A DNA stretch of 64,000 nt from Eledone cirrhosa (Eukaryota). The translations under genes and the position numbers were made by a program. The stretch covers positions 197,966,001 to 198,030,000 of the forward strand of contig OZ024743.1 in NCBI GenBank assembly GCA_964016885.1. The letters run 5' to 3'. Positions 5,204-61,325 of the stretch are shown here, in pieces (within the stretch, counting starts at the first letter, position 1; each line of letters opens with the position of its first letter). A model generated the notes under the pieces. That model was not told where the DNA came from and did no database searches. It worked only from the letters and a program-made list of their open reading frames with translations.

Positions 5204-5251
<48 letters not shown>

Positions 5252-5254
<3 letters not shown>

Positions 5255-6456
5255 AAGTATGTATGTATGTATTCGTACATACATATATGTATACAGACGT
5301 ATGTACGTATACATACATATATGTATGTATATGTACATACATATATGTATACAGACGTACAGTAGTATGTATATATATACATACATGCACACACATATAT
5401 ATATATGCACGTATCGGTTTACCGAACATTTATTATAATGCTCGGTTTGTTTGTTTGTAAACAAACAAACAGTCCGAATTACGCCGTACAGTGTTTAGGC
5501 AACCACGTCACCTTTTTGTTCAACACTGACACAGGAACGATGTACTAGTTTTAAGCTTATTAGCTATCGTCAGCATCGTATACCTTCCTGCCAGATGGTT
5601 GAACGTCTGAAAGTATATACCTTCCTTATACATATTAACGGCTGAGCAGCCTAATTTGCATATCGAGTGAGTTCAGTCGGCCGGGCACACCGAAAACGAT
5701 AAATGGAATAGAATGAAACGAAATTTCATTTCTCACTCTTAGTACGGCACAAGGTCACGTGGTTGCCTAAACACCGTACGGCGTAATTCGGGCTGTTTGT
5801 TTGTTTACAAGCAAACAAACCGAGCATTATAATAAATGTTCGGGAAACCGATACGTGCATATATATATGCGTGCATCTATGTATATATATACATACTACT
5901 GTACGTCTGTATACATATATGTATGTACGTATACATACATACATACTTACATTTAAGTAAGTGCCGTACTAAGAGTGAGAAATGAAATTTCGTTTCATTC
6001 TATTCCATTTATCGTGTTCGGTGTGCCCGGCCGACTGAAATCACTCGATATGCAAATTATGCTGCTCAGCCGTTAATATGCATAAGGAAAGTATATACTT
6101 TCAGACGTTCAACCATCTGGCAGGAAGGTATACGATGCTGACGATAGCTAATAAGCTTGAAACTAGTACATCGTTCCTGTGTCAGTGTTGAACAAAAAGG
6201 TGACGTGGTTGCCTAAACACTGTACAGCGTAATTCGGGCTGTTTGTTTGTTTACAAACAAACAAACCGAGCATTATAATAAATGTTCGGTAAACCGATAC
6301 GTGCATATATATATGTGTGTGTGCATGTATGTATATATATACATACTACTGTACGTCTGTATACATATATGTATGTACGTATACATACATACATACTTAC
6401 ATTCAAGTAAGTGCCGTATTAAGAGAGAGAAATGAAATTTCGTTTCATTCTATTCC

Positions 6457-6462
<6 letters not shown>
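5252..6462. mobile_element. Older head-to-head insertion of the HHR repeat family (about 1 unit forward, 1.5 units inverted)
   Basis: Diverged homologue of the 466-bp unit; orientation switches at about 5750; flanked by (AT)n/(GT)n. Confidence 0.85.
6132..6174 (+). ncRNA. Minimal type I hammerhead ribozyme motif
   Basis: ACGATG-CTGACGA-tAGCT aata AGCTt-GAAA-CTAG-TA-CATCGT; stem I 6 Watson-Crick bp, palindromic stem III, GUA site. Confidence 0.85.
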
Positions 6463-6487: not shown

Positions 6488-8619
6488 TCGTTTCTGAATT
6501 TGTTTAGCAAGATTCTTTATCTGAAATCGTGTGTTGAAACCGATATTGTTATACTTTGGGAGGGTCATGTTGCCAATAAGAAACACACGCACCAGTTGCT
6601 TTCACTTCAATTTATTATAATAAATTTATAATAAATTTATAATAAATTTATAAATTTATAAATTTCTGGTTGGTTGGTTGGTTCCACAACCAGATAGTTG
6701 TTTATATATCGTCATAGTTCTTTCGTCACACACTCTGTGACCTCTTCAGTGACTGGGGATTCCTTTCTTTGTTTTTGTGCCTCTCCTTTGTTCTGTCCTA
6801 CGCCATTTTGTTTCTGTGTGTGTGTTGTGTGCTCAGTCTGCGCATGCGCCACATCCGGGTGTCTGTGTGTGTTTATGTTTATTTATTTATTTGTGTATTT
6901 ACATGTTACTGGTTGGTTGTTTGTTCTATGTGTGTGTGTGTTTTCATTTTGTCCTTAATTGTAAGTTGTGATGTTGCTGTTCCACTCATATTTTCTATTT
7001 AATTTTGGTTGTAATTCTTTTATGTTTATTGCCTCTGTAATTTGTCTAAACATTGCGTCTTTTCTGTGTGTAGATTCTATTTTTATTTCTATGTTCTATT
7101 TTAGCATGTTGGTAGAGTACAGATGATTCTTTACTATCTTGAAGGTCTCGCCAGTGTTCATTTATCCGTTCCCCTACACTACGAGCTGTCTCACCTATGT
7201 ACACTATATTTTTGTCTCTACATTGTCCTTCAGTTCATCTTATGCTATACACTACATTTCTAGTTTTACAGTTAATATGGGGGCTTATTTTACAGGTTAT
7301 ACATTTCTTATCTATACATGAGGGTCTTTGAAAAGGGTATGTCTTGCTAATAAGTGTTTTTACGGAGGTACCTGGTCTTTCTACTATCTTAATATTGAGT
7401 TTATGTTTATCTAGGGCCCTTCTAAATTTGTTAGCTAATTCACCTCTAGGGGTTGTATCGATGAACATTACACTCTGGTATTTATTGCTATCATACCATG
7501 AGTTTATTCTATTAGCCTTATTCCTAGTTCTTTCTATTCTATTTCAAAATTTGCTCCTATACAAGGGGCAGGTCCCATTTGTGTCATTATTTACCATTTT
7601 TTCCCATTTGGTTCTGGCTCCTCTATACACTCTGATTTTATCTCTCTGATTGTAGCCAGAGAACTGCATACGGTGGATGAAGTGTTGTATGTGTCTTTCT
7701 AGTTCTTCGGGGTTGCACATGCGGGACACGTTTCTCATCACCCGTACCAAATCCGCAATCAGTACGTTGATTTTGGTATGGTCCGAAACGGCCGAGTTTC
7801 GGTGGATCAGATGTTTGGAAGTCATGGGTTTGGCATAATGGGAATGAAGGATTTGTTTTTTGTTATTAATGGTATCTAACCAGAGCTCTGTGTCTAGTAC
7901 AGGTAATCGATGGTTGGGGTGTTTACTTGGGTAGTCTATAGTAACTCTAATGCTCTGGTGGATGGAGTTAGCTATTTGCTGGATGCTTTCCATTGTGTTT
8001 TTCTCTAGTTCCTGACTGTTTTATAGTGGGGGTGTCTTAACTACGATGTTTATATCATCAACGTAGCGGGAGTACATTATCAGGGTTAAGGGGTCTTCTA
8101 ATTGTTCTTTAAGTTTAAGTTTAAGTCTACTGTCCCACCATACCATGAATAAGTTAGCTATGTCGCCTACAATGCTAACACCAATGGCTGCTCCTTCCTC
8201 TTGGGCATATGTTTTTCCATTAAATTTGAACATATGTTCCTTAAGGGTTAGTTTTCGGCTGGCCCCTACCGCATGTGCAATCATTTTCTTCAGTTCATCG
8301 TGGTTTTCGGGTGTCCGTATGGCTCTGGTCCACCCGTTCCATCTATCTGTGTGGGTTTTCTTGGCCATTGAGGTAATGGTAGGTGGTCTGCCTCTTGCTG
8401 GTCTTGTAGGGCACAGGTTGCTAAGGTCATATGTGTCTAGGTAATTATTACTATAGGTAAGTTTAAGTAGGAGTCCCAGCTCACTGGTATCAATCCCACG
8501 GAACTCAACATTGCTCTCAATGATCATTTCTACGCATTTCTCCACAGCAAAATCCACGTCAATAGATGGATACAGGGACACAACATCCATACTACCTATT
8601 ATGCAGTTTGTTAGGTCCC

Positions 8620-18645: not shown

Positions 18646-18648
<3 letters not shown>

Positions 18649-18917
18649 AAAAAAAGATGAAATCGAAAATGCAACTGGAGTCTTATTTTAAAAAAATATA
18701 TATATATTTATTTGGTTCCTTTACCCGTTTCGCAATTCTTCTGTTTTTCAAAAGATGGAGGGTCTGTGGTTTTTCTCACATGTGAGAAAAACCACAGACC
18801 CTCCATCTCAACTCTACTTTTGAAAAGCAGAAGAATTGTGAAACCGGTAAAGGAACCAAATAAATATATATTTAAAAGAAAAAAGACTCCAGTTGCAATT
18901 ATGATTTCATCTTTTTT

Positions 18918-18922
<5 letters not shown>
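18646..18922. mobile_element. Fold-back pLTR insertion in (AT)n with U3:A8 HHR variant (18817-18852)
   Basis: Inverted arms centred on ctcacatgtgag (18780/18781); CTT-TTGAAAA-GCA gaagaat TGT-GAAA-CCGG-TA-AAG. Confidence 0.75.
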
Positions 18923-18953
<31 letters not shown>

Positions 18954-19250
18954 TGAAACAAAATGAAAACGAAATTTCATTTCTCACTCTTAGTATGGCA
19001 CTTACTTAAATGTAAGTATGCATGTATACGTACATACATATATGTATACAGACGTACAGTAGCATGCACATATATATATATATATACATATATACATACA
19101 TATGCATACAGGTACACATACATATATGCACGTATCAGTTTAGCGGCGCTAACGTCGCTTTGTTCGTTTGTAAACAAACTGAACAGCCTGAATTTATGCC
19201 ATACGGTGTTAAAGCAACCACGTCACCTTTTTGTTCAACACTGACACAGG

Positions 19251-19295
19251 AACGATGTACTAGTTTCAAGCTTGTTAGCTATCATCAGCACCGTT
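19251..19295 (-). ncRNA. HHR, left arm (identical copies at 19717-19761, 20183-20227, 20649-20693)
   Basis: Reverse complement AACGGTG-CTGATGA-tAGCT aaca AGCTt-GAAA-CTAG-TA-CATCGTT. Confidence 0.88.
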
Positions 19296-21236
19296 TACCC
19301 ATCTGCCAGATAGTTGAACGTTCGAAAGTATATACTTTCCTTATGAAAATTAACGGCTGAGCAGCCTAATTTGCATATTGAGTGAGTTAAATCGGTCAGG
19401 CATACCGAAAACGATAAATTGAAACAAAATGAAAACGAAATTTCATTTCTCACTCTTAGTATGGCACTTACTTAAATGTAAGTATGCATGTATACGTACA
19501 TACATATATGTATACAGACGTACAGTAGCATGCACATATATATATATATATACATATATACATACATATGCATACAGGTACACATACATATATGCACGTA
19601 TCAGTTTAGCGGCGCTAACGTCGCTTTGTTCGTTTGTAAACAAACTGAACAGCCTGAATTTATGCCATACGGTGTTAAAGCAACCACGTCACCTTTTTGT
19701 TCAACACTGACACAGGAACGATGTACTAGTTTCAAGCTTGTTAGCTATCATCAGCACCGTTTACCCATCTGCCAGATAGTTGAACGTTCGAAAGTATATA
19801 CTTTCCTTATGAAAATTAACGGCTGAGCAGCCTAATTTGCATATTGAGTGAGTTAAATCGGTCAGGCATACCGAAAACGATAAATTGAAACAAAATGAAA
19901 ACGAAATTTCATTTCTCACTCTTAGTATGGCACTTACTTAAATGTAAGTATGCATGTATACGTACATACATATATGTATACAGACGTACAGTAGCATGCA
20001 CATATATATATATATATACATATATACATACATATGCATACAGGTACACATACATATATGCACGTATCAGTTTAGCGGCGCTAACGTCGCTTTGTTCGTT
20101 TGTAAACAAACTGAACAGCCTGAATTTATGCCATACGGTGTTAAAGCAACCACGTCACCTTTTTGTTCAACACTGACACAGGAACGATGTACTAGTTTCA
20201 AGCTTGTTAGCTATCATCAGCACCGTTTACCCATCTGCCAGATAGTTGAACGTTCGAAAGTATATACTTTCCTTATGAAAATTAACGGCTGAGCAGCCTA
20301 ATTTGCATATTGAGTGAGTTAAATCGGTCAGGCATACCGAAAACGATAAATTGAAACAAAATGAAAACGAAATTTCATTTCTCACTCTTAGTATGGCACT
20401 TACTTAAATGTAAGTATGCATGTATACGTACATACATATATGTATACAGACGTACAGTAGCATGCACATATATATATATATATACATATATACATACATA
20501 TGCATACAGGTACACATACATATATGCACGTATCAGTTTAGCGGCGCTAACGTCGCTTTGTTCGTTTGTAAACAAACTGAACAGCCTGAATTTATGCCAT
20601 ACGGTGTTAAAGCAACCACGTCACCTTTTTGTTCAACACTGACACAGGAACGATGTACTAGTTTCAAGCTTGTTAGCTATCATCAGCACCGTTTACCCAT
20701 CTGCCAGATAGTTGAACGTTCGAAAGTATATACTTTCCTTATGAAAATTAACGGCTGAGCAGCCTAATTTGCATATTGAGTGAGTTAAATCGGTCAGGCA
20801 TACCGAAAACGATAAATTGAAACAAAATGAAAACGAAATTTCATTTCTCACTCTTAGTATGGCACTTACTTAAATGTAAGTATGCATGTATACGTACATA
20901 CATATATGTATACATATATGTATGTACCTGATACGTGCATATATGTATGTGTACCTGTATGCATATGTATGTATATATGTATATATATATATATATGTGC
21001 ATGCTACTGTACGTCTGTATACATATATGTATGTACGTATACATGCATACTTACATTTAAGTAAGTGCCATACTAAGAGTGAGAAATGAAATTTCGTTTT
21101 CATTTTGTTTCAATTTATCGTTTTCGGTATGCCTGACCGATTTAACTCACTCAATATGCAAATTAGGCTGCTCAGCCGTTAATTTTCATAAGGAAAGTAT
21201 ATACTTTCGAACGTTCAACTATCTGGCAGATGGGTA

Positions 21237-21281
21237 AACGGTGCTGATGATAGCTAACAAGCTTGAAACTAGTACATCGTT
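21237..21281 (+). ncRNA. HHR, right arm (copies start at 21703, 22169, 22635, 23102, 23568, 24034); predicted cleavage after 21274
   Basis: Stem I AACGGTG/CATCGTT, core CTGATGA 21244-21250, stem II AGCT/AGCT, GAAA 21265-21268, palindromic ACTAGT, GUA triplet. Confidence 0.88.
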
Positions 21282-24200
21282 CCTGTGTCAGTGTTGAACA
21301 AAAAGGTGACGTGGTTGCTTTAACACCGTATGGCATAAATTCAGGCTGTTCAGTTTGTTTACAAACGAACAAAGCGACGTTAGCGCCGCTAAACTGATAC
21401 GTGCATATATGTATGTGTACCTGTATGCATATGTATGTATATATGTATATATATATATATATGTGCATGCTACTGTACGTCTGTATACATATATGTATGT
21501 ACGTATACATGCATACTTACATTTAAGTAAGTGCCATACTAAGAGTGAGAAATGAAATTTCGTTTTCATTTTGTTTCAATTTATCGTTTTCGGTATGCCT
21601 GACCGATTTAACTCACTCAATATGCAAATTAGGCTGCTCAGCCGTTAATTTTCATAAGGAAAGTATATACTTTCGAACGTTCAACTATCTGGCAGATGGG
21701 TAAACGGTGCTGATGATAGCTAACAAGCTTGAAACTAGTACATCGTTCCTGTGTCAGTGTTGAACAAAAAGGTGACGTGGTTGCTTTAACACCGTATGGC
21801 ATAAATTCAGGCTGTTCAGTTTGTTTACAAACGAACAAAGCGACGTTAGCGCCGCTAAACTGATACGTGCATATATGTATGTGTACCTGTATGCATATGT
21901 ATGTATATATGTATATATATATATATATGTGCATGCTACTGTACGTCTGTATACATATATGTATGTACGTATACATGCATACTTACATTTAAGTAAGTGC
22001 CATACTAAGAGTGAGAAATGAAATTTCGTTTTCATTTTGTTTCAATTTATCGTTTTCGGTATGCCTGACCGATTTAACTCACTCAATATGCAAATTAGGC
22101 TGCTCAGCCGTTAATTTTCATAAGGAAAGTATATACTTTCGAACGTTCAACTATCTGGCAGATGGGTAAACGGTGCTGATGATAGCTAACAAGCTTGAAA
22201 CTAGTACATCGTTCCTGTGTCAGTGTTGAACAAAAAGGTGACGTGGTTGCTTTAACACCGTATGGCATAAATTCAGGCTGTTCAGTTTGTTTACAAACGA
22301 ACAAAGCGACGTTAGCGCCGCTAAACTGATACGTGCATATATGTATGTGTACCTGTATGCATATGTATGTATATATGTATATATATATATATATGTGCAT
22401 GCTACTGTACGTCTGTATACATATATGTATGTACGTATACATGCATACTTACATTTAAGTAAGTGCCATACTAAGAGTGAGAAATGAAATTTCGTTTTCA
22501 TTTTGTTTCAATTTATCGTTTTCGGTATGCCTGACCGATTTAACTCACTCAATATGCAAATTAGGCTGCTCAGCCGTTAATTTTCATAAGGAAAGTATAT
22601 ACTTTCGAACGTTCAACTATCTGGCAGATGGGTAAACGGTGCTGATGATAGCTAACAAGCTTGAAACTAGTACATCGTTCCTGTGTCAGTGTTGAACAAA
22701 AAAGGTGACGTGGTTGCTTTAACACCGTATGGCATAAATTCAGGCTGTTCAGTTTGTTTACAAACGAACAAAGCGACGTTAGCGCCGCTAAACTGATACG
22801 TGCATATATGTATGTGTACCTGTATGCATATGTATGTATATATGTATATATATATATATATGTGCATGCTACTGTACGTCTGTATACATATATGTATGTA
22901 CGTATACATGCATACTTACATTTAAGTAAGTGCCATACTAAGAGTGAGAAATGAAATTTCGTTTTCATTTTGTTTCAATTTATCGTTTTCGGTATGCCTG
23001 ACCGATTTAACTCACTCAATATGCAAATTAGGCTGCTCAGCCGTTAATTTTCATAAGGAAAGTATATACTTTCGAACGTTCAACTATCTGGCAGATGGGT
23101 AAACGGTGCTGATGATAGCTAACAAGCTTGAAACTAGTACATCGTTCCTGTGTCAGTGTTGAACAAAAAGGTGACGTGGTTGCTTTAACACCGTATGGCA
23201 TAAATTCAGGCTGTTCAGTTTGTTTACAAACGAACAAAGCGACGTTAGCGCCGCTAAACTGATACGTGCATATATGTATGTGTACCTGTATGCATATGTA
23301 TGTATATATGTATATATATATATATATGTGCATGCTACTGTACGTCTGTATACATATATGTATGTACGTATACATGCATACTTACATTTAAGTAAGTGCC
23401 ATACTAAGAGTGAGAAATGAAATTTCGTTTTCATTTTGTTTCAATTTATCGTTTTCGGTATGCCTGACCGATTTAACTCACTCAATATGCAAATTAGGCT
23501 GCTCAGCCGTTAATTTTCATAAGGAAAGTATATACTTTCGAACGTTCAACTATCTGGCAGATGGGTAAACGGTGCTGATGATAGCTAACAAGCTTGAAAC
23601 TAGTACATCGTTCCTGTGTCAGTGTTGAACAAAAAGGTGACGTGGTTGCTTTAACACCGTATGGCATAAATTCAGGCTGTTCAGTTTGTTTACAAACGAA
23701 CAAAGCGACGTTAGCGCCGCTAAACTGATACGTGCATATATGTATGTGTACCTGTATGCATATGTATGTATATATGTATATATATATATATATGTGCATG
23801 CTACTGTACGTCTGTATACATATATGTATGTACGTATACATGCATACTTACATTTAAGTAAGTGCCATACTAAGAGTGAGAAATGAAATTTCGTTTTCAT
23901 TTTGTTTCAATTTATCGTTTTCGGTATGCCTGACCGATTTAACTCACTCAATATGCAAATTAGGCTGCTCAGCCGTTAATTTTCATAAGGAAAGTATATA
24001 CTTTCGAACGTTCAACTATCTGGCAGATGGGTAAACGGTGCTGATGATAGCTAACAAGCTTGAAACTAGTACATCGTTCCTGTGTCAGTGTTGAACAAAA
24101 AGGTGACGTGGTTGCTTTAACACCGTATGGCATAAATTCAGGCTGTTCAGTTTGTTTACAAACGAACAAAGCGACGTTAGCGCCGCTAAACTGATACGTG

Positions 24201-24314
24201 CATATATGTATGTGTACCTGTATGCATATGTATGTATATATGTATATATATATATATATGTGCATGCTACTGTACGTCTGTATACATATATGTATGTACG
24301 TATACATGCATACT

Positions 24315-24349
<35 letters not shown>

Positions 24350-32477: not shown

Positions 32478-32536
32478 ATTTTATCTGATGAAAGCTTACC
32501 AAAGATTTGGTACCCTTGAAATATATATAATAGAAT
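32478..32536 (+). ncRNA. HHR motif at a pLTR-like end upstream of (AT)n
   Basis: ATTTTAT-CTGATGA-AAG..TACCAAA ga TTTGGTA..CTT-GAAA-TATATA-TA-ATAGAAT. Confidence 0.75.
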
Positions 32537-41488: not shown

Positions 41489-43800
41489 AATAATTATAAA
41501 TGTGAAGACTAAAATCCAAAGAGGGCTCGATAAGGATACATATATATCAAATATATAAGAACCCTAGTGCAATAGTGCAAATATTTATTAAAATAACAGA
41601 TTAAAGTGTAAGCAAAGCATCGCTGCTTTCACCCTTAACGGGATCATCTGAAACTAAATATTTCGAAAAACGTTGCAACCCAAGGAAAACAGGAAGACGA
41701 TACTTTGGTTCCAACACCTGAATATTTCTACAAAGAACATACCCGTACCTAGCAGGAAGACATATTTAAAACTTATACAAAAAACGGATTCGTTCTTTAA
41801 ACGGTTGCGTTGGCGCGCTTTTTATTTCGATAACCAGGAAAAAAGCGGACAATAAACAGGATAAATTTGGGTTTAAAACTTACAATAACCCCCCGTGTAA
41901 CCCAACTTTGCTTCCCTTCGAAAACGATGTCTTCGAACTCATACGGAGTATCAAATTTCGGAACAGGAGTAATTCCTTCCAACAGGACCTGAAGAATAGA
42001 ATTCGTTATATTAAGGATTCTAATGCCGTGCACGTCCACTGCGACAAAACTGGCAATCTATATCAAGTGGAGCGCAGTACTTACCATCAACTGTTACATA
42101 ATGCTGTAACCTGGATTACCGGAAAACCAATCGGAGTGTCTTTAAGGACATCAACGATGCTGGGTTTAAAATCACTTCTGAACTCAAAATCCTGGACCGG
42201 ACCGAACCTCTGGACCCTCTTCCTCCCCACTTTACCCTGAAGAATCACAAACCCAATTTCGCTAACAACCCGTCTATTTGGCTAATTAACCCTACGAAGT
42301 CTGATTTAGGTAGACTTAGTAAAAGGATTTTAGATGAATTATACCTGAAATTAGAAGCTTGGCTCCCCTTGCACCGTGGAATAATTCTTTCGCCGTGATT
42401 GATTGGTTCAATGGCATTTGTAACAAGGAACATTGCCGTTTTATCCAATTCGACATCAACAACTACTACTCCTCCATCACTTTACCACTTTTTCTTAGAG
42501 CTATCAATTTCGCTAAAACGCTCACGGTGGTTAAGGATTTCGAAATTCATGTCATTCTCAATGCCTGTAATTCGGTGATTAATTTCGACGACTCTATTTG
42601 GATGAAAAGATCTAATAGTAACCCATTCAACGTGAGTATGGGCGCCAACGATTCGGTGGAGGTTACAGATCTTATCGGCCTTTTCCTTCTTTTCTCTATC
42701 AATGAAGAATTTCCTAATGTGGGCAGTGGTTTGTTCCGCGATGACGGTCTTTGAGCATGACAAAGTGCGGTCCCCGCGCTTGCGACAGGTTTAGAAAAGA
42801 ACTCACAGCCTTCTTTAAAGGATTCAACCCCTCCATACAGGTTGAGGCCAACCTTTCGGTCGTAAACTACCTCGACGTTACCATCAATTTGTCGAATGGC
42901 TTTCACTACCCGTATAGAAAGCCGAATGCTACGCTTAATTACATCAGTAAGCATTCTAACCATCTTGCCAGCATAACCAAGAACCTGGTAAGAAATGTTT
43001 CTTTGGGGCTTTCCCGTCTATTTACAAACGATCATATTTTTACCGACCATTCCACAATGAAGCTTTTGCTCGGAGTAGATTTGTCGATAAGGTAGCATAT
43101 ACTAAGTATGAGCATAAAGCTAGGAAAAATAGATCCCGACGCATTATATGGTATAATCCACCATATAATATGGAGGCGCCACACCATTAGCTAAGATCTT
43201 TCTCCCCCTTATTAAGAAGCATTTCCCCTCAGCACATAAATATAATGAAATTTTTAATAGAAATATCATTAAAATATCTTACTCTACGACTCCCAACTTT
43301 GCACATAACATCACTGCTTCAAATTTAGCTAAATTACCTAGCGGTAGGAACACGTGCAACGCTGTAACTAGTACTAACTGTAATTGTAGGAATCGAGTTG
43401 ACTGTCTCTATCCGGGAAATGCCTCTCCAGTAACATTGTCTACAAATGTAAGGTCAAAATGCTCACATCTAGTAGGGCCTACATAGGGTTAACCGCCAAT
43501 AGATTCAAGCAGCGTCTTTACATGCACACCCATTCTTTTCTTAACCCTTTAAGAAGGAATATGACGTCACTTTCAACTTATATCTGGAGTCAAAAAGACA
43601 AGCACACCCAATATAGGTTAACCTGGGAGATCCTAGCTAAAACTAGATCGTACAACGGAAATAAAAGACCATGCGATATTTGCGCCGCTGAAGCCCTGGA
43701 AATACTCTACGCCAATGATCACATCAATTTCGGCTTGTAAACACAAATTGCATAAAACTTTCCTGCATTACAGCCCCACATTATACCCTAACGGATAGTA
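41484..43800 (+). mobile_element. Near full-length degenerate Penelope-like element (RT + C-terminal GIY-YIG; CxCx5C linker, Hydra-clade-like)
   Basis: KRLRWRA, DKTGNLY, INPTKSDLG, FIQFDINNYYSSI, SMGAND, GLFRDDGL, NYLDVT..YRKPN, WYNPPY, CNCRNRVDC, YIGLTA..CDIC; several frameshifts; inverted pLTR piece at the 5' end. Confidence 0.9.
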
Positions 43801-47662: not shown

Positions 47663-49550
47663 ATTAATTTTGCGAGGTTTTTTATATGAAATCGTGTGTC
47701 GAAACAAATATTGTTATAGTTGGGGAGGGTCATATTTGTGTAATATTGCCAGAATTAATAACAGAACACACTCACTGTTTGGTTGGTTTTCGCTTTTCGC
47801 TTCTGTGTCTTTTATATCGGTAATCTAACTTACTCGGTCCTCAATGTTGCCATTGACTGACCGACGGTCAAAAATAATACAGATACAATATAGACACAAA
47901 CACATATATATAGTTTATCATAAATCTTTCGTTGCACATCTGCAACATCGTCAGTGGTGCTATTGTTTCCTCCTGTTGAATTGTATGGCACATGCAATAG
48001 GGGCTAGTATCAAAACTACCCTCAAGATCTACACCCAAAATGAAGGAACAGCCATTGGCGTCAGTATAGCTGGTGATGTTGCCAACCTTTTCATGGTATG
48101 GTGGGAAAGGAGACTTAAAGATCTCCTTAATGAGAGCTCCATAGACCACATCATGTACTCTCGTTATGTAGACGATATCAATATAGTTATAAGAACATCC
48201 CCACTAGAGAGCACTAACAAGTTTGATTTAGAACGTAGCACAATGGAAAGCATCCAGCAGATAGCTAATTCCATACACCAGAGTATAACTGTAACTATCG
48301 ACTTCCCTTCCAAACACCCTAACAATAGACTACCTGTATTAGACACAGAACTATGGATTAACACTATAGACGAGAGAGCCCAAATTCTCCACTCACACTA
48401 TGCTAAACCCATGGCCTCCAAATACCTGATACTCAAAAACTCAGCAATGTCCAGTAGTGCTAATTTTAATATTCTGATCGCAGATTTGGTACGAGTGATG
48501 AAGAATGTGTCCCGCATGTGCGACCCAACAGAAATGGAAAGACACATCCAACACTTAAAAATTAAGGTGGTAGAAAAGCCAGGAACCACCATAAAATCCC
48601 TGATCAGCAAAACCTACCCTTTTAAGAAAACTCACTGTACCAATAGGAAATGTATCGTATGTAAGGTAAACACCCGGATAAACTGTAAAACTAGAAACGT
48701 AGTCTATAGCATAAGATGTACAGAGGGTACCTGCAGAAACATGACAACAACATACATAGGTGAGACAGCTCGTAGCAGAGGTGAAAGGATAGACCAACAC
48801 TGGGGGGAACTAAAAGGACGAAAAAACGGGTCAGTACTATACGAACATGCCAGACAACAACATGACGGTAACATAGACAACATAGAAATTAGAATAATAT
48901 CTAAACATAGAAATGACCCAGCAGATAGGCAAATCAGAGAGGCCAGTGAAATAGAACTTAGAAGACCAAAACTAAACAGAAAGAATGAATGGAATAACAA
49001 CAACACCCAAACAAACAACACTGACCCAAGATAAGTATAAATAAGTAAATAAAATAAAACAAAATAAAATAAATAAATAAATAAATAAATACATACACAA
49101 GCACAATAACAACAAACACATAAACACACATTAGTCACCCAATCACGAACACACATCACACATCAAACAAAACACTATACACACACGCAAACGCATGCGC
49201 ACAGAAGACAAAATAAAATAAACAAACAAGCAAATAAATAAATAAATATATAGACAGATTGAATAAAAATGGCCTAGCCATACAATTCAACAGGAGGAAA
49301 CAATAGCACCACTGACGATGTTGCAGATGTGCAAAGAAAGATTTATGATAAACTATATATATGTGTTTGTGTCTATATTGTATGTATATTATTTTTGACC
49401 ATCGGTCAGTCAATGGCAACATTGAGGACCGAGTATATTAGATTACCGATATAAAAGACACAGAAGCGAAAAGCGACAACCAACCAAACAGTGAGTGTGT
49501 TCTGTTATTAATTCTGGCAATATTACACAAATATGACCCTCCCCAAGCAT

Positions 49551-49556
<6 letters not shown>
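47663..49556 (+). mobile_element. 5'-inverted Penelope-like insertion: antisense pLTR (47663-47986), internally deleted RT/EN ORF (about 47984-49034), sense pLTR (49277-49556)
   Basis: GTAIG, YSRYVDD, LPVLD, CTNRKCIVC, VVYSIRC..YIGETAR..HWG..EH..H..REASEI..PKLN; the pLTRs are reverse complements; HHR-like motifs at 47917-47958 (-) and 49308-49349 (+). Confidence 0.92.
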
Positions 49557-49616
<60 letters not shown>

Positions 49617-60371: not shown

Positions 60372-60532
60372 TACTAATTTTGGACAACACCAAAGAAAGC
60401 CGATATCTTCAAATTGCAAGTATAATTCCAGCTCACATTTCATCTATGTATAGTTGTTGATGGATATGTGTGTATATATGTGCATATGTATATTGATACA
60501 TATGTATGTATGTATTTATGCATGTATGTATG

Positions 60533-61325
60533 CATACAGCTCTGAGTTTTTCATCCTCAGTGTATACTGATTAATGTTCAGAGACATCCTCAGCATTCTC
60601 GTGTAGCACCCATCCACCATCTGAGTGAGTTTCCTGGTCAGTGTCCAAGTCTCAGACCCATACAGCAGCACAGACTCCACTACAGCAATGAAGAGGCGGA
60701 TTTTCAGGTCTCTACGAAGGTCCGACTTCGACACCGATCTCAAGCTGTGGCACGCCGCCCAGGCCTTGCTCTTCCTCTCAACCACATCATCTTCCGTATT
60801 CCGAATCTTTGCTCCCAAATACAGGAGGCCCTCAACCAATTCTAGCGGCTTCCCGCCTACATTAGTGATCCCCTCTGGCTTCTCAACATTCTCTACCAGA
60901 TATTTTGTTTTAGTCTCATTCATTCTCAGCCCCACATTCATCGACACAGTCTCAACCTCCCGCATCAAATCCTCTGCCTCCTTCACTGTATTTGTCACCA
61001 AAACTATGTCGTCGGCAAATTCAGCATCCGATATTCAGAGCTGTATGGGAGCATCCCACAAGTCAGCTCAAAAGTGACACAGAGGAGACTGAGGTGAGCT
61101 GGACATTCTCAGACATCCAGAGTTGACATTGCACTCAGTACTCCTTTGGGAGCCCCTACATGGACACACTAGAAGAGGAAGACCAAGGTTAACGTATGTT
61201 GATACCCTAAGGACAGACACTGGTCTGTTGGAGACGCAGGACATGGCAGCGATGATGAGGGACAGAGACCGCTGGAGAGAACTCGTCCATGGATCTCGGG
61301 AATTTTATCCGCCTTAGAGAGTATG
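60533..61325. mobile_element. RTE/RTEX-like LINE with 5' inversion (60533-61030 minus, 61031-61325 plus) and 16-bp TSD
   Basis: FADD, YLGA, VESVLLYGSETW on minus; HGHTRRGRPRLTYVD..DRDRW on plus; tatgcatgtatgtatg at 60517-60532 and 61326-61341. Confidence 0.88.

Follow-up and report, generated by a model that had tools for sequence, protein, structure and literature searches.

Structure of the Array

The window, a stretch of 64,000 nucleotides of Eledone cirrhosa contig OZ024743.1 (assembly GCA_964016885.1, positions 197,966,001 to 198,030,000), contains an array of 466-bp units organized as two arms. TRF reported a period of 466 for each arm, at 18948-20914 (4.2 copies, 100% matches) and at 20928-24319 (7.3 copies, 99%). 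The first arm lies on the minus strand and includes four exact copies of a 45-nt hammerhead ribozyme (HHR), at 19251, 19717, 20183, and 20649; the second, on the plus strand, includes seven, at 21237, 21703, 22169, 22635, 23102, 23568, and 24034. The arms are head-to-head and diverge from a junction bearing a 13-nt insert (20915-20927, plus strand). An earlier sequence-only reading had described 11 near-identical units, four minus and seven plus, pointing away from an inversion, and the TRF periods together with the exact HHR positions bear this out. In the assembly the 11 units are identical, down to an internal (AT)8, with the sole difference being an extra A in the A run near 22700.

One cleavage-to-cleavage monomer of 466 nt occupies 21275-21740 (plus strand), and phase 0 of the unit is taken as the base after the HHR cleavage site. 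On this scale the minus arm is 5'-truncated at phase 207 and has its 3' end at 18948 (phase 309), the long or "tail" end. The 62-nt tail itself (phases 248-309; 18948-19009, minus strand) is absent from the other outer end, where the plus arm, 5'-truncated at phase 119, finishes at the short end (phase 247). The 13-nt insert reads as a snap-back copy of phases 215-227, derived from a short palindrome at the 5' end of the minus arm. As the earlier reading had noted, (AT)n flanks the array on both sides (left tract 18921-18947, right tract 24320-24345), and any target-site duplication would be masked within these tracts. The left and right flanks show no similarity to each other, which excludes a fold-back of the whole locus. 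No credible open reading frame (ORF) is present in the array, again in agreement with the earlier reading: the longest ATG-ORF is 132 aa and of low complexity, and the RT plus GIY-YIG ORF of an autonomous Penelope-like element (PLE) is missing.

The Family in the Genome

The exact HHR core is found 23,679 times in the genome. A reversed control pattern is found 0 times, so these matches are beyond chance. A young subfamily accounts for 3,947 units. The window itself holds an older copy of the same family at 5257-6462, ~83% identical, likewise head-to-head and in (AT)n, with a junction at about 5750/5751, the short end on the minus arm and the tail end on the plus arm. Neither this second copy nor the great abundance of the family had been noticed in the earlier reading. 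The family is dispersed and multi-copy, without an LTR or tRNA part; searches found no tRNA and no ordered Pol III A/B boxes, and no promoter for array transcription was found. Its non-coding units stand in tandem, at least two in a row, and every one bears a type I HHR. This makes the family a non-LTR retrozyme and as such a non-autonomous PLE; the class first assigned to it from the window is supported. The window array is a very young insertion of this common non-coding element.

In four public sequencing runs, the unit matched 4,177 contigs, 6 contigs, one contig in a poor partial match, and none, respectively. No public-run contig spans the array stretch and the unit number rests on the assembly, which is what could be said for an assembly or library fold-back artefact. 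This explanation is nonetheless extremely improbable: the flanks are unrelated, the unit is found in independent public runs, and 29 loci, as well as autonomous PLEs (see below), repeat this architecture with junctions of their own and a strict rule for the ends.

Hammerhead Ribozyme and RNA Fold

The HHR at 21237-21281 (plus strand), which repeats at steps of +466 and is also present on the minus arm, consists of a 7-bp helix I, CUGAUGA, a helix II of 4 bp above a U·U, GAAA, and a helix III of 1-2 bp with a palindromic loop, with cleavage predicted after 21274. The type I core (CUGANGA / GAAA / UH, with helices I-III) was found in 11 units. The earlier description of a minimal type I HHR with a tiny palindromic stem III stands as regards the type and the weak palindromic helix III, but the element is not a min-HHR as found in PLEs (PMC4209133). 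The min-HHRs of PLEs are without helix III and are defined by a helix II of 7-8 bp and a G10.1-C11.1 pair, whereas the Eledone family has a helix III of 1-2 bp, a helix II of 4 bp, and U·U in place of G10.1-C11.1. The proposed likeness to newt ribozymes holds: the motif is of the newt/axolotl type, with U·U instead of G-C as the basal pair of helix II. An Rfam search at the gathering score gave 0 matches; Hammerhead_HH9 aligned at the expected position with a score of 18.5 bits (E 0.093), far under its cut-off of 52. Rfam microRNA matches at a relaxed threshold fell on an AT-rich hairpin, were all below the cut-off, and were rejected.

The 466-nt monomer is predicted to be strongly self-paired (-153.3 kcal/mol, z -8.08) and the AT-rich hairpin just mentioned lies inside it, at about 21394-21520. 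The minimum-energy structure computed for the circular form mispairs the HHR core. The helix III palindrome has a computed homoduplex energy of -4.8 kcal/mol. The HHR is retained in a set of 15 diverse copies, where helix I carries a change on both sides of a pair; across subfamilies, 7 of 60 pairs are altered on both sides, one of them in helix I. Cells with two-sided change numbered 29, compared to 11.9 in shuffles, for a structure drawn from the same alignment and with few subfamily-level events. By analogy, HHR activity in the retrozyme/PLE class is doubtful: only 1 of 9 Xenopus HHR dimers was cleaved (bioRxiv 10.64898/2026.07.22.740005), and mutating the HHR left the in vitro insertion activity of the Poseidon protein unchanged (PMC11167929). 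The U·U at 10.1-11.1 and the low Rfam score also count against the mechanism favored below.

Ends and Junctions of the Insertions

The 3' ends of the family are discrete. Among 35 arms of 20 young loci (hand count), 18 ended at phase 286-310 and 16 at ~243-250, while the remaining arm extended beyond the sequence examined; the tail end lies ~62 nt past the short end. One short and one tail end were seen in 27 of 29 head-to-head insertions, with no tail/tail case (p about 8e-7). Autonomous PLE pairs in the genome kept to the same rule in 8 of 8 cases (2/2 in family P, 6/6 in family N2). The head-to-head arrangement is a rule for the family and for autonomous PLEs of this genome, rather than a peculiarity of this locus. 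The 5' junction phases, on the other hand, are scattered from 18 to 439, and 16 junctions comprised 12 with an overlap of 0-6 nt, one with an overlap of 11 nt, and three with inserts. Together, 5' truncation, an inverted arm, a tail at one end, and a microsatellite target make up the signature of PLE insertion, and the autonomous PLEs of this genome show the same signature. This signature and the 27/29 end rule support the earlier suggestion of mobilization by PLE machinery, and it is very likely, judging from these sequence features, that the element is mobilized by a PLE as a retrozyme.

Experiments with a Poseidon PLE offer a precedent for the two ends. In vitro, both strands were cut and extended at AT-rich DNA, two start sites defined the tail, and a dimer was predicted (PMC11167929). 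Priming at both ends on one RNA, or on RNA of one source locus, is the probable origin of the Eledone arrays. Self-priming, in which one cDNA or an antisense template folds back and one arm copies the other, has been proposed for bdelloid PLEs, and palindromic junctions have been reported (PMC3846280). Such a fold-back would account for a haplotype common to both arms, and the 13-nt snap-back insert at the window junction is in keeping with it. However, most junctions in the family are non-palindromic and the two 5' phases are unequal; in autonomous pairs, moreover, each arm may hold sequence missing from the other. In two cases, family P (C2:359.51 Mb) and the N2 copy within the window, the arm with the short end exceeds the other in length, so neither arm was copied from the other, and a fold-back is hard to hold for the family P insertion. 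As an origin of the inversion it is very improbable.

Clonality and the Template of the Arrays

All 11 units of the window array, in both arms, carry T where the family has C (21319, plus strand). The fixation of this variant supports the view, already put forward in the sequence-only reading, of a single recent event from one monomer haplotype. The window haplotype occurs 13 times genome-wide, 11 times in this array and twice as a lone unit, once apiece in two other arrays. No multi-unit parent array of this haplotype is present in the assembly; a homogeneous parent may lie beyond this one assembly. An RT error hotspot was considered for the window variant, as single units in many arrays carried it, and was rejected, since the query carried the variant and the pattern is due to ascertainment. 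In the wider family, where phase 162 is split roughly 50:50, the arms of a locus match each other at this site in all 13 loci that could be scored, and a further substitution is fixed in all scoreable units at 10 of 24 loci (both hand counts).

The mechanism that we favor on balance is that two RTs, acting as a dimer, start synthesis from the two ends of a break in (AT)n and copy one RNA repeatedly. A multi-unit array would first be transcribed. By analogy with the newt, axolotl, and mussel retrozymes, neighboring HHRs may pair via the palindromic helix III and release 466-nt monomers, which a host ligase could circularize. An EN+ PLE protein, acting in trans as a dimer, would cut both strands of (AT)n; here the target is observed and the enzyme is a candidate. 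Two RT sites, one per DNA end, would start ~62 nt apart on the same RNA, the end rule being observed and the dimer presumed. Each RT would then copy the same monomer for several rounds by strand displacement and stop at a random phase; random 5' ends and clonality are observed, and the rolling circle is a proposed explanation. The cDNA ends would finally be joined through microhomology or a short templated insert, as the observed junctions suggest, to give a head-to-head array. A monomer circle is a somewhat better than even candidate for the template of the window array. The full picture, in which the arrays are the footprint of twin-primed rolling-circle RT on a ribozyme-made RNA circle held by a PLE RT dimer, is put forward tentatively.

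Two-ended PLE priming could also have used an uncleaved linear multimer or a multimer circle as template, with a homogeneous parent array as the source and the HHR as a weakly active passenger. At locus L125, the minus arm shows one run of 445T, plain, and an 8-nt deletion, and the plus arm shows two runs in the same order; such ordered variants in both arms suggest a multimeric template or later conversion. Loci L119 and L203 have a three-variant haplotype in common, which has been counted in favor of a multimer and fits the monomer-circle route as well; L203, which is homogeneous, was rejected as a single-unit parent of L119 and is a two-unit sister. Unprocessed RNA was the main substrate of the Poseidon protein in vitro (PMC11167929), and most of the Xenopus dimers tested were left uncleaved (bioRxiv 10.64898/2026.07.22.740005). 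A multimer is nevertheless an unlikely template for the window array: the assembly is without the multi-unit parent, multimer copying alone cannot fix a new variant in an 11-unit array, and the HHR core and helix I are retained among subfamilies that are 81-94% alike.

Growth at the DNA level was also considered, with a PLE-type insertion of one or two units followed by satellite-like expansion and conversion between arms. Local amplification was favored in a recent study (bioRxiv 10.64898/2026.07.22.740005), and block duplications do occur in old long arrays, including one of 28 units at C2:379.86 Mb and another at C4:212.92 Mb, where 54 units lie in a 28-kb stretch whose two ends are both open. 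However, the arrays of the window (11 HHR units) and of C3 (22) show no change of length in the mutable (AT)8 and so are long yet almost unmutated, and each arm would have needed to grow separately. It is improbable that the young arrays arose in this way, and repeated copying of one RNA from both ends of the break is preferred.

Search for the Partner PLE

Among the PLE families sampled, no autonomous element showed pLTR homology to the unit, with N1, N2, and P scoring at shuffle level, and the Neptune-like N1, N2, and family P were set aside as relatives of the unit, with which they share no sequence similarity. N2 is the first candidate for the partner: it is young, it has 222 nt between HHR and short end where the unit has 247, and its tail measures 60 nt where that of the unit measures 62. 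A further 45 GIY-YIG/N2 loci yielded only neighboring retrozyme copies and no homologous pLTR. A retrozyme lies near 4 of 30 N1 loci, a proximity put down to their shared target. A small ORF starting in the tail was rejected as a lead: it is not conserved between subfamilies, and none of the 150 matches scored (of 16,519 candidates) lay in a long frame. At 20 older loci, no ORF was consistently joined upstream of the HHR. The PLE ORF beside array L032/L041 was likewise rejected as a partner, as it belongs to an unrelated PLE with its own ends, inserted into the internal (AT)n of a unit.

Significance

The origin of tandem and inverted PLE insertions has been named as unsolved (PMC8557442), and the insertion of retrozymes from a circular template is a published idea that lacks direct evidence (PMC4209133, PMC7229834). 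The Eledone family supplies near-identical young units by the thousand, which opens both questions to tests on genome data. The rule of one short and one tail end, together with the haplotype shared by the arms, constrains the possible mechanisms, and array-fixed variants serve as lineage marks for single RNA templates, so that the shape of these insertions gives unusually clear clues to how PLEs copy RNA into chromosomes. Its insertions place inverted repeats of kilobase size within (AT)n tracts, and more than 23,000 copies of its HHR are missed by Rfam. If twin-primed rolling-circle copying were true, one mechanism would explain the tandem, inverted, and one-sided-tail structures of PLEs, retrozyme circles would really serve as insertion templates, and an RNA parasite would recruit an RT by structure, without pLTR sequence homology.

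Relation to Known Systems

The element type is already known, and its class, the PLE link, and the idea of a circular template have been published (PMC4209133, PMC7229834, bioRxiv 10.64898/2026.07.22.740005). The counted one-tail rule and the clonality of the arrays go beyond this literature; searches on PLEs, hammerheads, retrozymes, and priming turned up no description of the family and no counted one-tail rule. Like metazoan non-LTR retrozymes (PMC7229834; bioRxiv 10.64898/2026.07.22.740005), the Eledone family is built of non-coding tandem units, every unit bearing one type I HHR, and the 466-bp unit falls inside their range of 51-972 bp. Low GC and a self-paired monomer are common to it and to these elements, among them newt satellite 2 and axolotl Rtz331/353; its weak palindromic helix III resembles that of HHR_Amex1, and its basal U·U in helix II that of HHR_Amex2. 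Dispersed arrays and co-occurrence with PLEs are further likenesses. The main texts of the same two studies make no mention of head-to-head arms, the one-tail rule, or targeting of (AT)n. In Xenopus, 24 of 57 families matched known TEs, nearly all of them PLEs (PMC7229834; bioRxiv 10.64898/2026.07.22.740005), whereas the Eledone family showed no pLTR homology to the autonomous PLEs sampled.

The resemblance to described PLE insertions is also close, with 5' truncation, tandem copies, an inverted 5'-truncated arm, a tail at one end, (TA)n targets, and an HHR upstream of the 3' end. Unlike these, the Eledone insertions are without an ORF and contain up to tens of full units each. The tail is about 62 nt, in contrast to 30-40 nt in described PLEs; within this genome, tails measure 58-60 nt in the N1 and N2 families and 41 nt in family P. 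A similar case is found among Chlamys elements, where non-autonomous PLEs such as MRC1 also form multicopy head-to-tail insertions (PMC8557442).

Structure of the array and its family

The array (18948-24319) consists of two arms with a 466-bp period, 18948-20914 (4.2 copies) and 20928-24319 (7.3 copies) by TRF, separated by a 13-nt insert. Phases are counted from the first base beyond the predicted cleavage position (phase 0, 21275). On this scale the minus arm (18948-20914) starts in phase 207 at the junction and reaches phase 309 at 18948, and the plus arm (20928 to ~24319) starts in phase 119 and reaches phase 247 at ~24319. The sequence-only reading had described eleven essentially identical head-to-head units, four minus and seven plus, with (AT)n at both ends and no credible ORF, and each element of that description was borne out: the 45-nt hammerhead (HHR) recurs without a mismatch in four minus-strand and seven plus-strand units, the sole difference among units is an additional A near 22700, (AT)n abuts both outer ends, and no ATG-ORF exceeds 132 aa, the longest being low-complexity. 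The outer end of each arm corresponds to a 3' end of the ribozyme-sense strand, and the left and right flanks are unrelated to each other. Immediately left of the array, between two (TA)n tracts, lies a 275-bp palindromic element (18647-18921) that matches its reverse complement at 85% identity and has copies at eight other loci examined; because its ends are symmetric, a MITE-like DNA element is suggested.

Across the 3.0-Gb assembly (1,796 contigs), exact matches to a 33-place HHR pattern number 23,679, against none for its reversed control, and a 77-nt marker of the young subfamily has 3,947 matches with at most one mismatch. The window element is ordinary for its class, one of thousands in the genome. 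A second, older copy (~83% identical), also head-to-head, lies at ~5250-6462. Contigs matching the unit numbered 4,177 in one public run of unrecorded kind and six in another, with one poor partial match in a third and none in a fourth. HHR-like motifs of other families occur in the window at 32485 (+), 41262 (+), 49840 (-), 55288 (+) and 59811 (+), that of 41262/49840 recurring downstream of a GIY-YIG frame in locus L187. Further short HHR families were seen at L048:9663 and 9973 (minus), L053:834 and L058:3620, one of them a 310-bp tandem, suggesting several more putative retrozyme families (non-coding HHR-bearing elements) in this genome.

The hammerhead ribozyme

In the array HHR, helix I comprises 7 bp plus a bulged extension, helix II 4 bp over a U·U, and helix III 1-2 bp with a palindromic loop. 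No Rfam model matched it at gathering score; Hammerhead_HH9 scores 18.5 bits, against a cut-off of 52, at the correct position. Clustering of 239 segments gave 17 representatives, of which 15 were aligned; in this alignment 97.4% of cells are paired. Two-sided changes occur in 7 of 60 pairs, including a helix I pair (G·U, U·G, A-U, U-A), with 29 two-sided-change cells observed versus 11.9 in shuffles. Because these counts represent few subfamily-level events and the structure was derived from the same alignment, the covariation offers moderate evidence for selection on the RNA. The predicted monomer fold has an energy of -153.3 kcal/mol (z -8.08), to which an AT-rich hairpin contributes part.

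Ends of the arms

Arms end either short (~phase 247) or with a tail of ~62 nt more (~phase 309). Among 35 arms at 20 young loci (the first 18 listed on contig C1 in positional order, the window and an array on contig C3), the end falls at phase 286-310 in 18 and at ~243-250 in 16, and one ran off its stretch (hand count). Head-to-head pairs called over 69 regions of all ages numbered 29, comprising 27 short/tail, two short/short and no tail/tail pairs (binomial p 8e-7). Any end lacking the tail motif was scored as short, which puts damaged ends in this class too. One of the two exceptions continues into masked bases beyond its short end.

The one-tail rule extends to autonomous Penelope-like elements (PLEs) of the same genome, holding in 2/2 pairs of family P (RT plus GIY-YIG; 41-nt tail) and 6/6 pairs of family N2, which has a tail of up to 60 nt and many identical-scoring copies. 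In a P pair on contig C2 the short-ended arm measures 2,770 bp versus ~2,310 bp for the tail-ended arm. The head-to-head N2 copy in the window (~47,700-49,560) pairs a tail end with a short end and carries an HHR-like core in its 3' UTR; here too the short-ended arm is the longer. In each of these two insertions both arms hold sequence absent from the other; both were therefore copied from RNA.

Sixteen loci have an HHR in both arms; their 5' phases are spread between 18 and 439, with junction overlaps of 0-6 nt at 12 loci and 11 nt at one, and inserts of 8, 13 and 59 nt at the other three. This fits random stopping of two cDNAs followed by end joining.

Origin of the units

At 21319 the array units carry T, where nearly the whole family has C (572,736 of 572,808 depth units of one public run, X2). 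The assembly contains 13 exact instances of the array's 77-nt haplotype: 11 in the array itself, one among the 22 units of the C3 array and one among the three units of a C2 array. These two outside units have a different base at phase 162, and hence the haplotype search found no exact parent in the assembly. Hand counts showed a substitution other than phase 162 fixed in all scoreable units at 10 of 24 loci, and agreement of the two arms at phase 162 in 13/13 scoreable loci (A at six, G at seven), three with indels over the site being left out. An older array has three variants common to 13/13 units across both arms. Genome-wide privacy of variants was assessed for the window and L119.

A monomer circle is, by a slight preference, our candidate template for the window array. 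Three findings count against a purely monomeric model: an ordered three-unit pattern repeated in both arms of L125, a homogeneous sister (L203) of the L119 haplotype, and block duplications in two old arrays, one of 28 units and one of at least 54; the duplications show that DNA-level growth does occur later. Old arrays of this family at C4:212.916-212.944 Mb (L045, L021, L046) and C2:379.86-379.87 Mb (L039, L047) have expanded into satellite-like blocks with higher-order repeats.

Candidate partner elements

No partner PLE was found for the retrozyme family among the families and loci compared. P, N1 and N2 resemble the unit in their 3' regions only at shuffle level, no linked ORF appeared at 45 further loci or at 20 older retrozyme loci, and of 16,519 candidates for a small tail ORF the 150 that were scored had frames no longer than 62 aa. 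A PLE adjoining array L032 was rejected because it sits inside a unit's (AT)n. N2 is the best match in geometry and youth, which is only a hint. N1 and N2 are presumably Neptune-like, judging by their motifs.

A 5'-truncated N1 copy lies in the window at ~6490-8440 (minus; 88-93% in amino acids to L043 frames), its tail end sharing an (AT)n tract with the older retrozyme copy at ~5250-6462; the N1 protein query gave 40,275 first-look candidates. Family P, at L041:4715-9610 (minus; assembly G000 C6:28.47 Mb), is very young, with many copies 100% identical in amino acids. A ~3.87-kb unit repeated five times in tandem at G000 C2:359.517-359.535 Mb (L110-L112) combines parts of a P head-to-head insertion with an HHR of another family. 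Decayed RT fragments lie in the window at 42650-43053 and 60519-61034, one resembling a PLE frame of L042 and one a weak RVT_1 match.

Mechanism and comparison with known systems

Directly visible at the loci are the target, a pair of fixed 3' ends of which each arm uses one, random 5' ends, a shared haplotype and clonal units. The window element is very probably a PLE-mobilised retrozyme, and two-ended priming from one RNA or one source locus is the likely route. Transcription of an array would lead to dimeric HHR cleavage and ligation of the cleaved RNA; an RT dimer would start at two sites of one RNA, with strand-displacing rounds of copying on a circle.

Several components have precedents in the accessible parts of the literature. 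Circle-templated tandem cDNA has been proposed (PMC7229834), also for PLEs in the work that defined the minimal HHR (PMC4209133). Another study describes both DNA strands cut and extended, two start sites, a predicted dimer, and an HHR that is protein-assisted and dispensable for insertion (PMC11167929), and another a tail on one inverted pseudo-LTR (pLTR), with a self-priming model (PMC3846280). Retrozyme families of 51-972 bp, PLE pLTR homology in Xenopus and cleavage of one of nine dimers are reported in bioRxiv 10.64898/2026.07.22.740005. The literature covered, lying mostly outside subscription papers, holds no account of this family and no one-tail count, and the PMC7229834 supplement may show inverted examples. 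A descriptor search found no hammerhead in the 3' region of family P, although HHRs are described as universal in C-terminal EN+ PLEs (PMC8557442). Through the end rule and the clonality of the arms, an open question about how PLEs and retrozymes are mobilised can be put to a direct test. The array family is an already known kind of element, the family itself being newly met.
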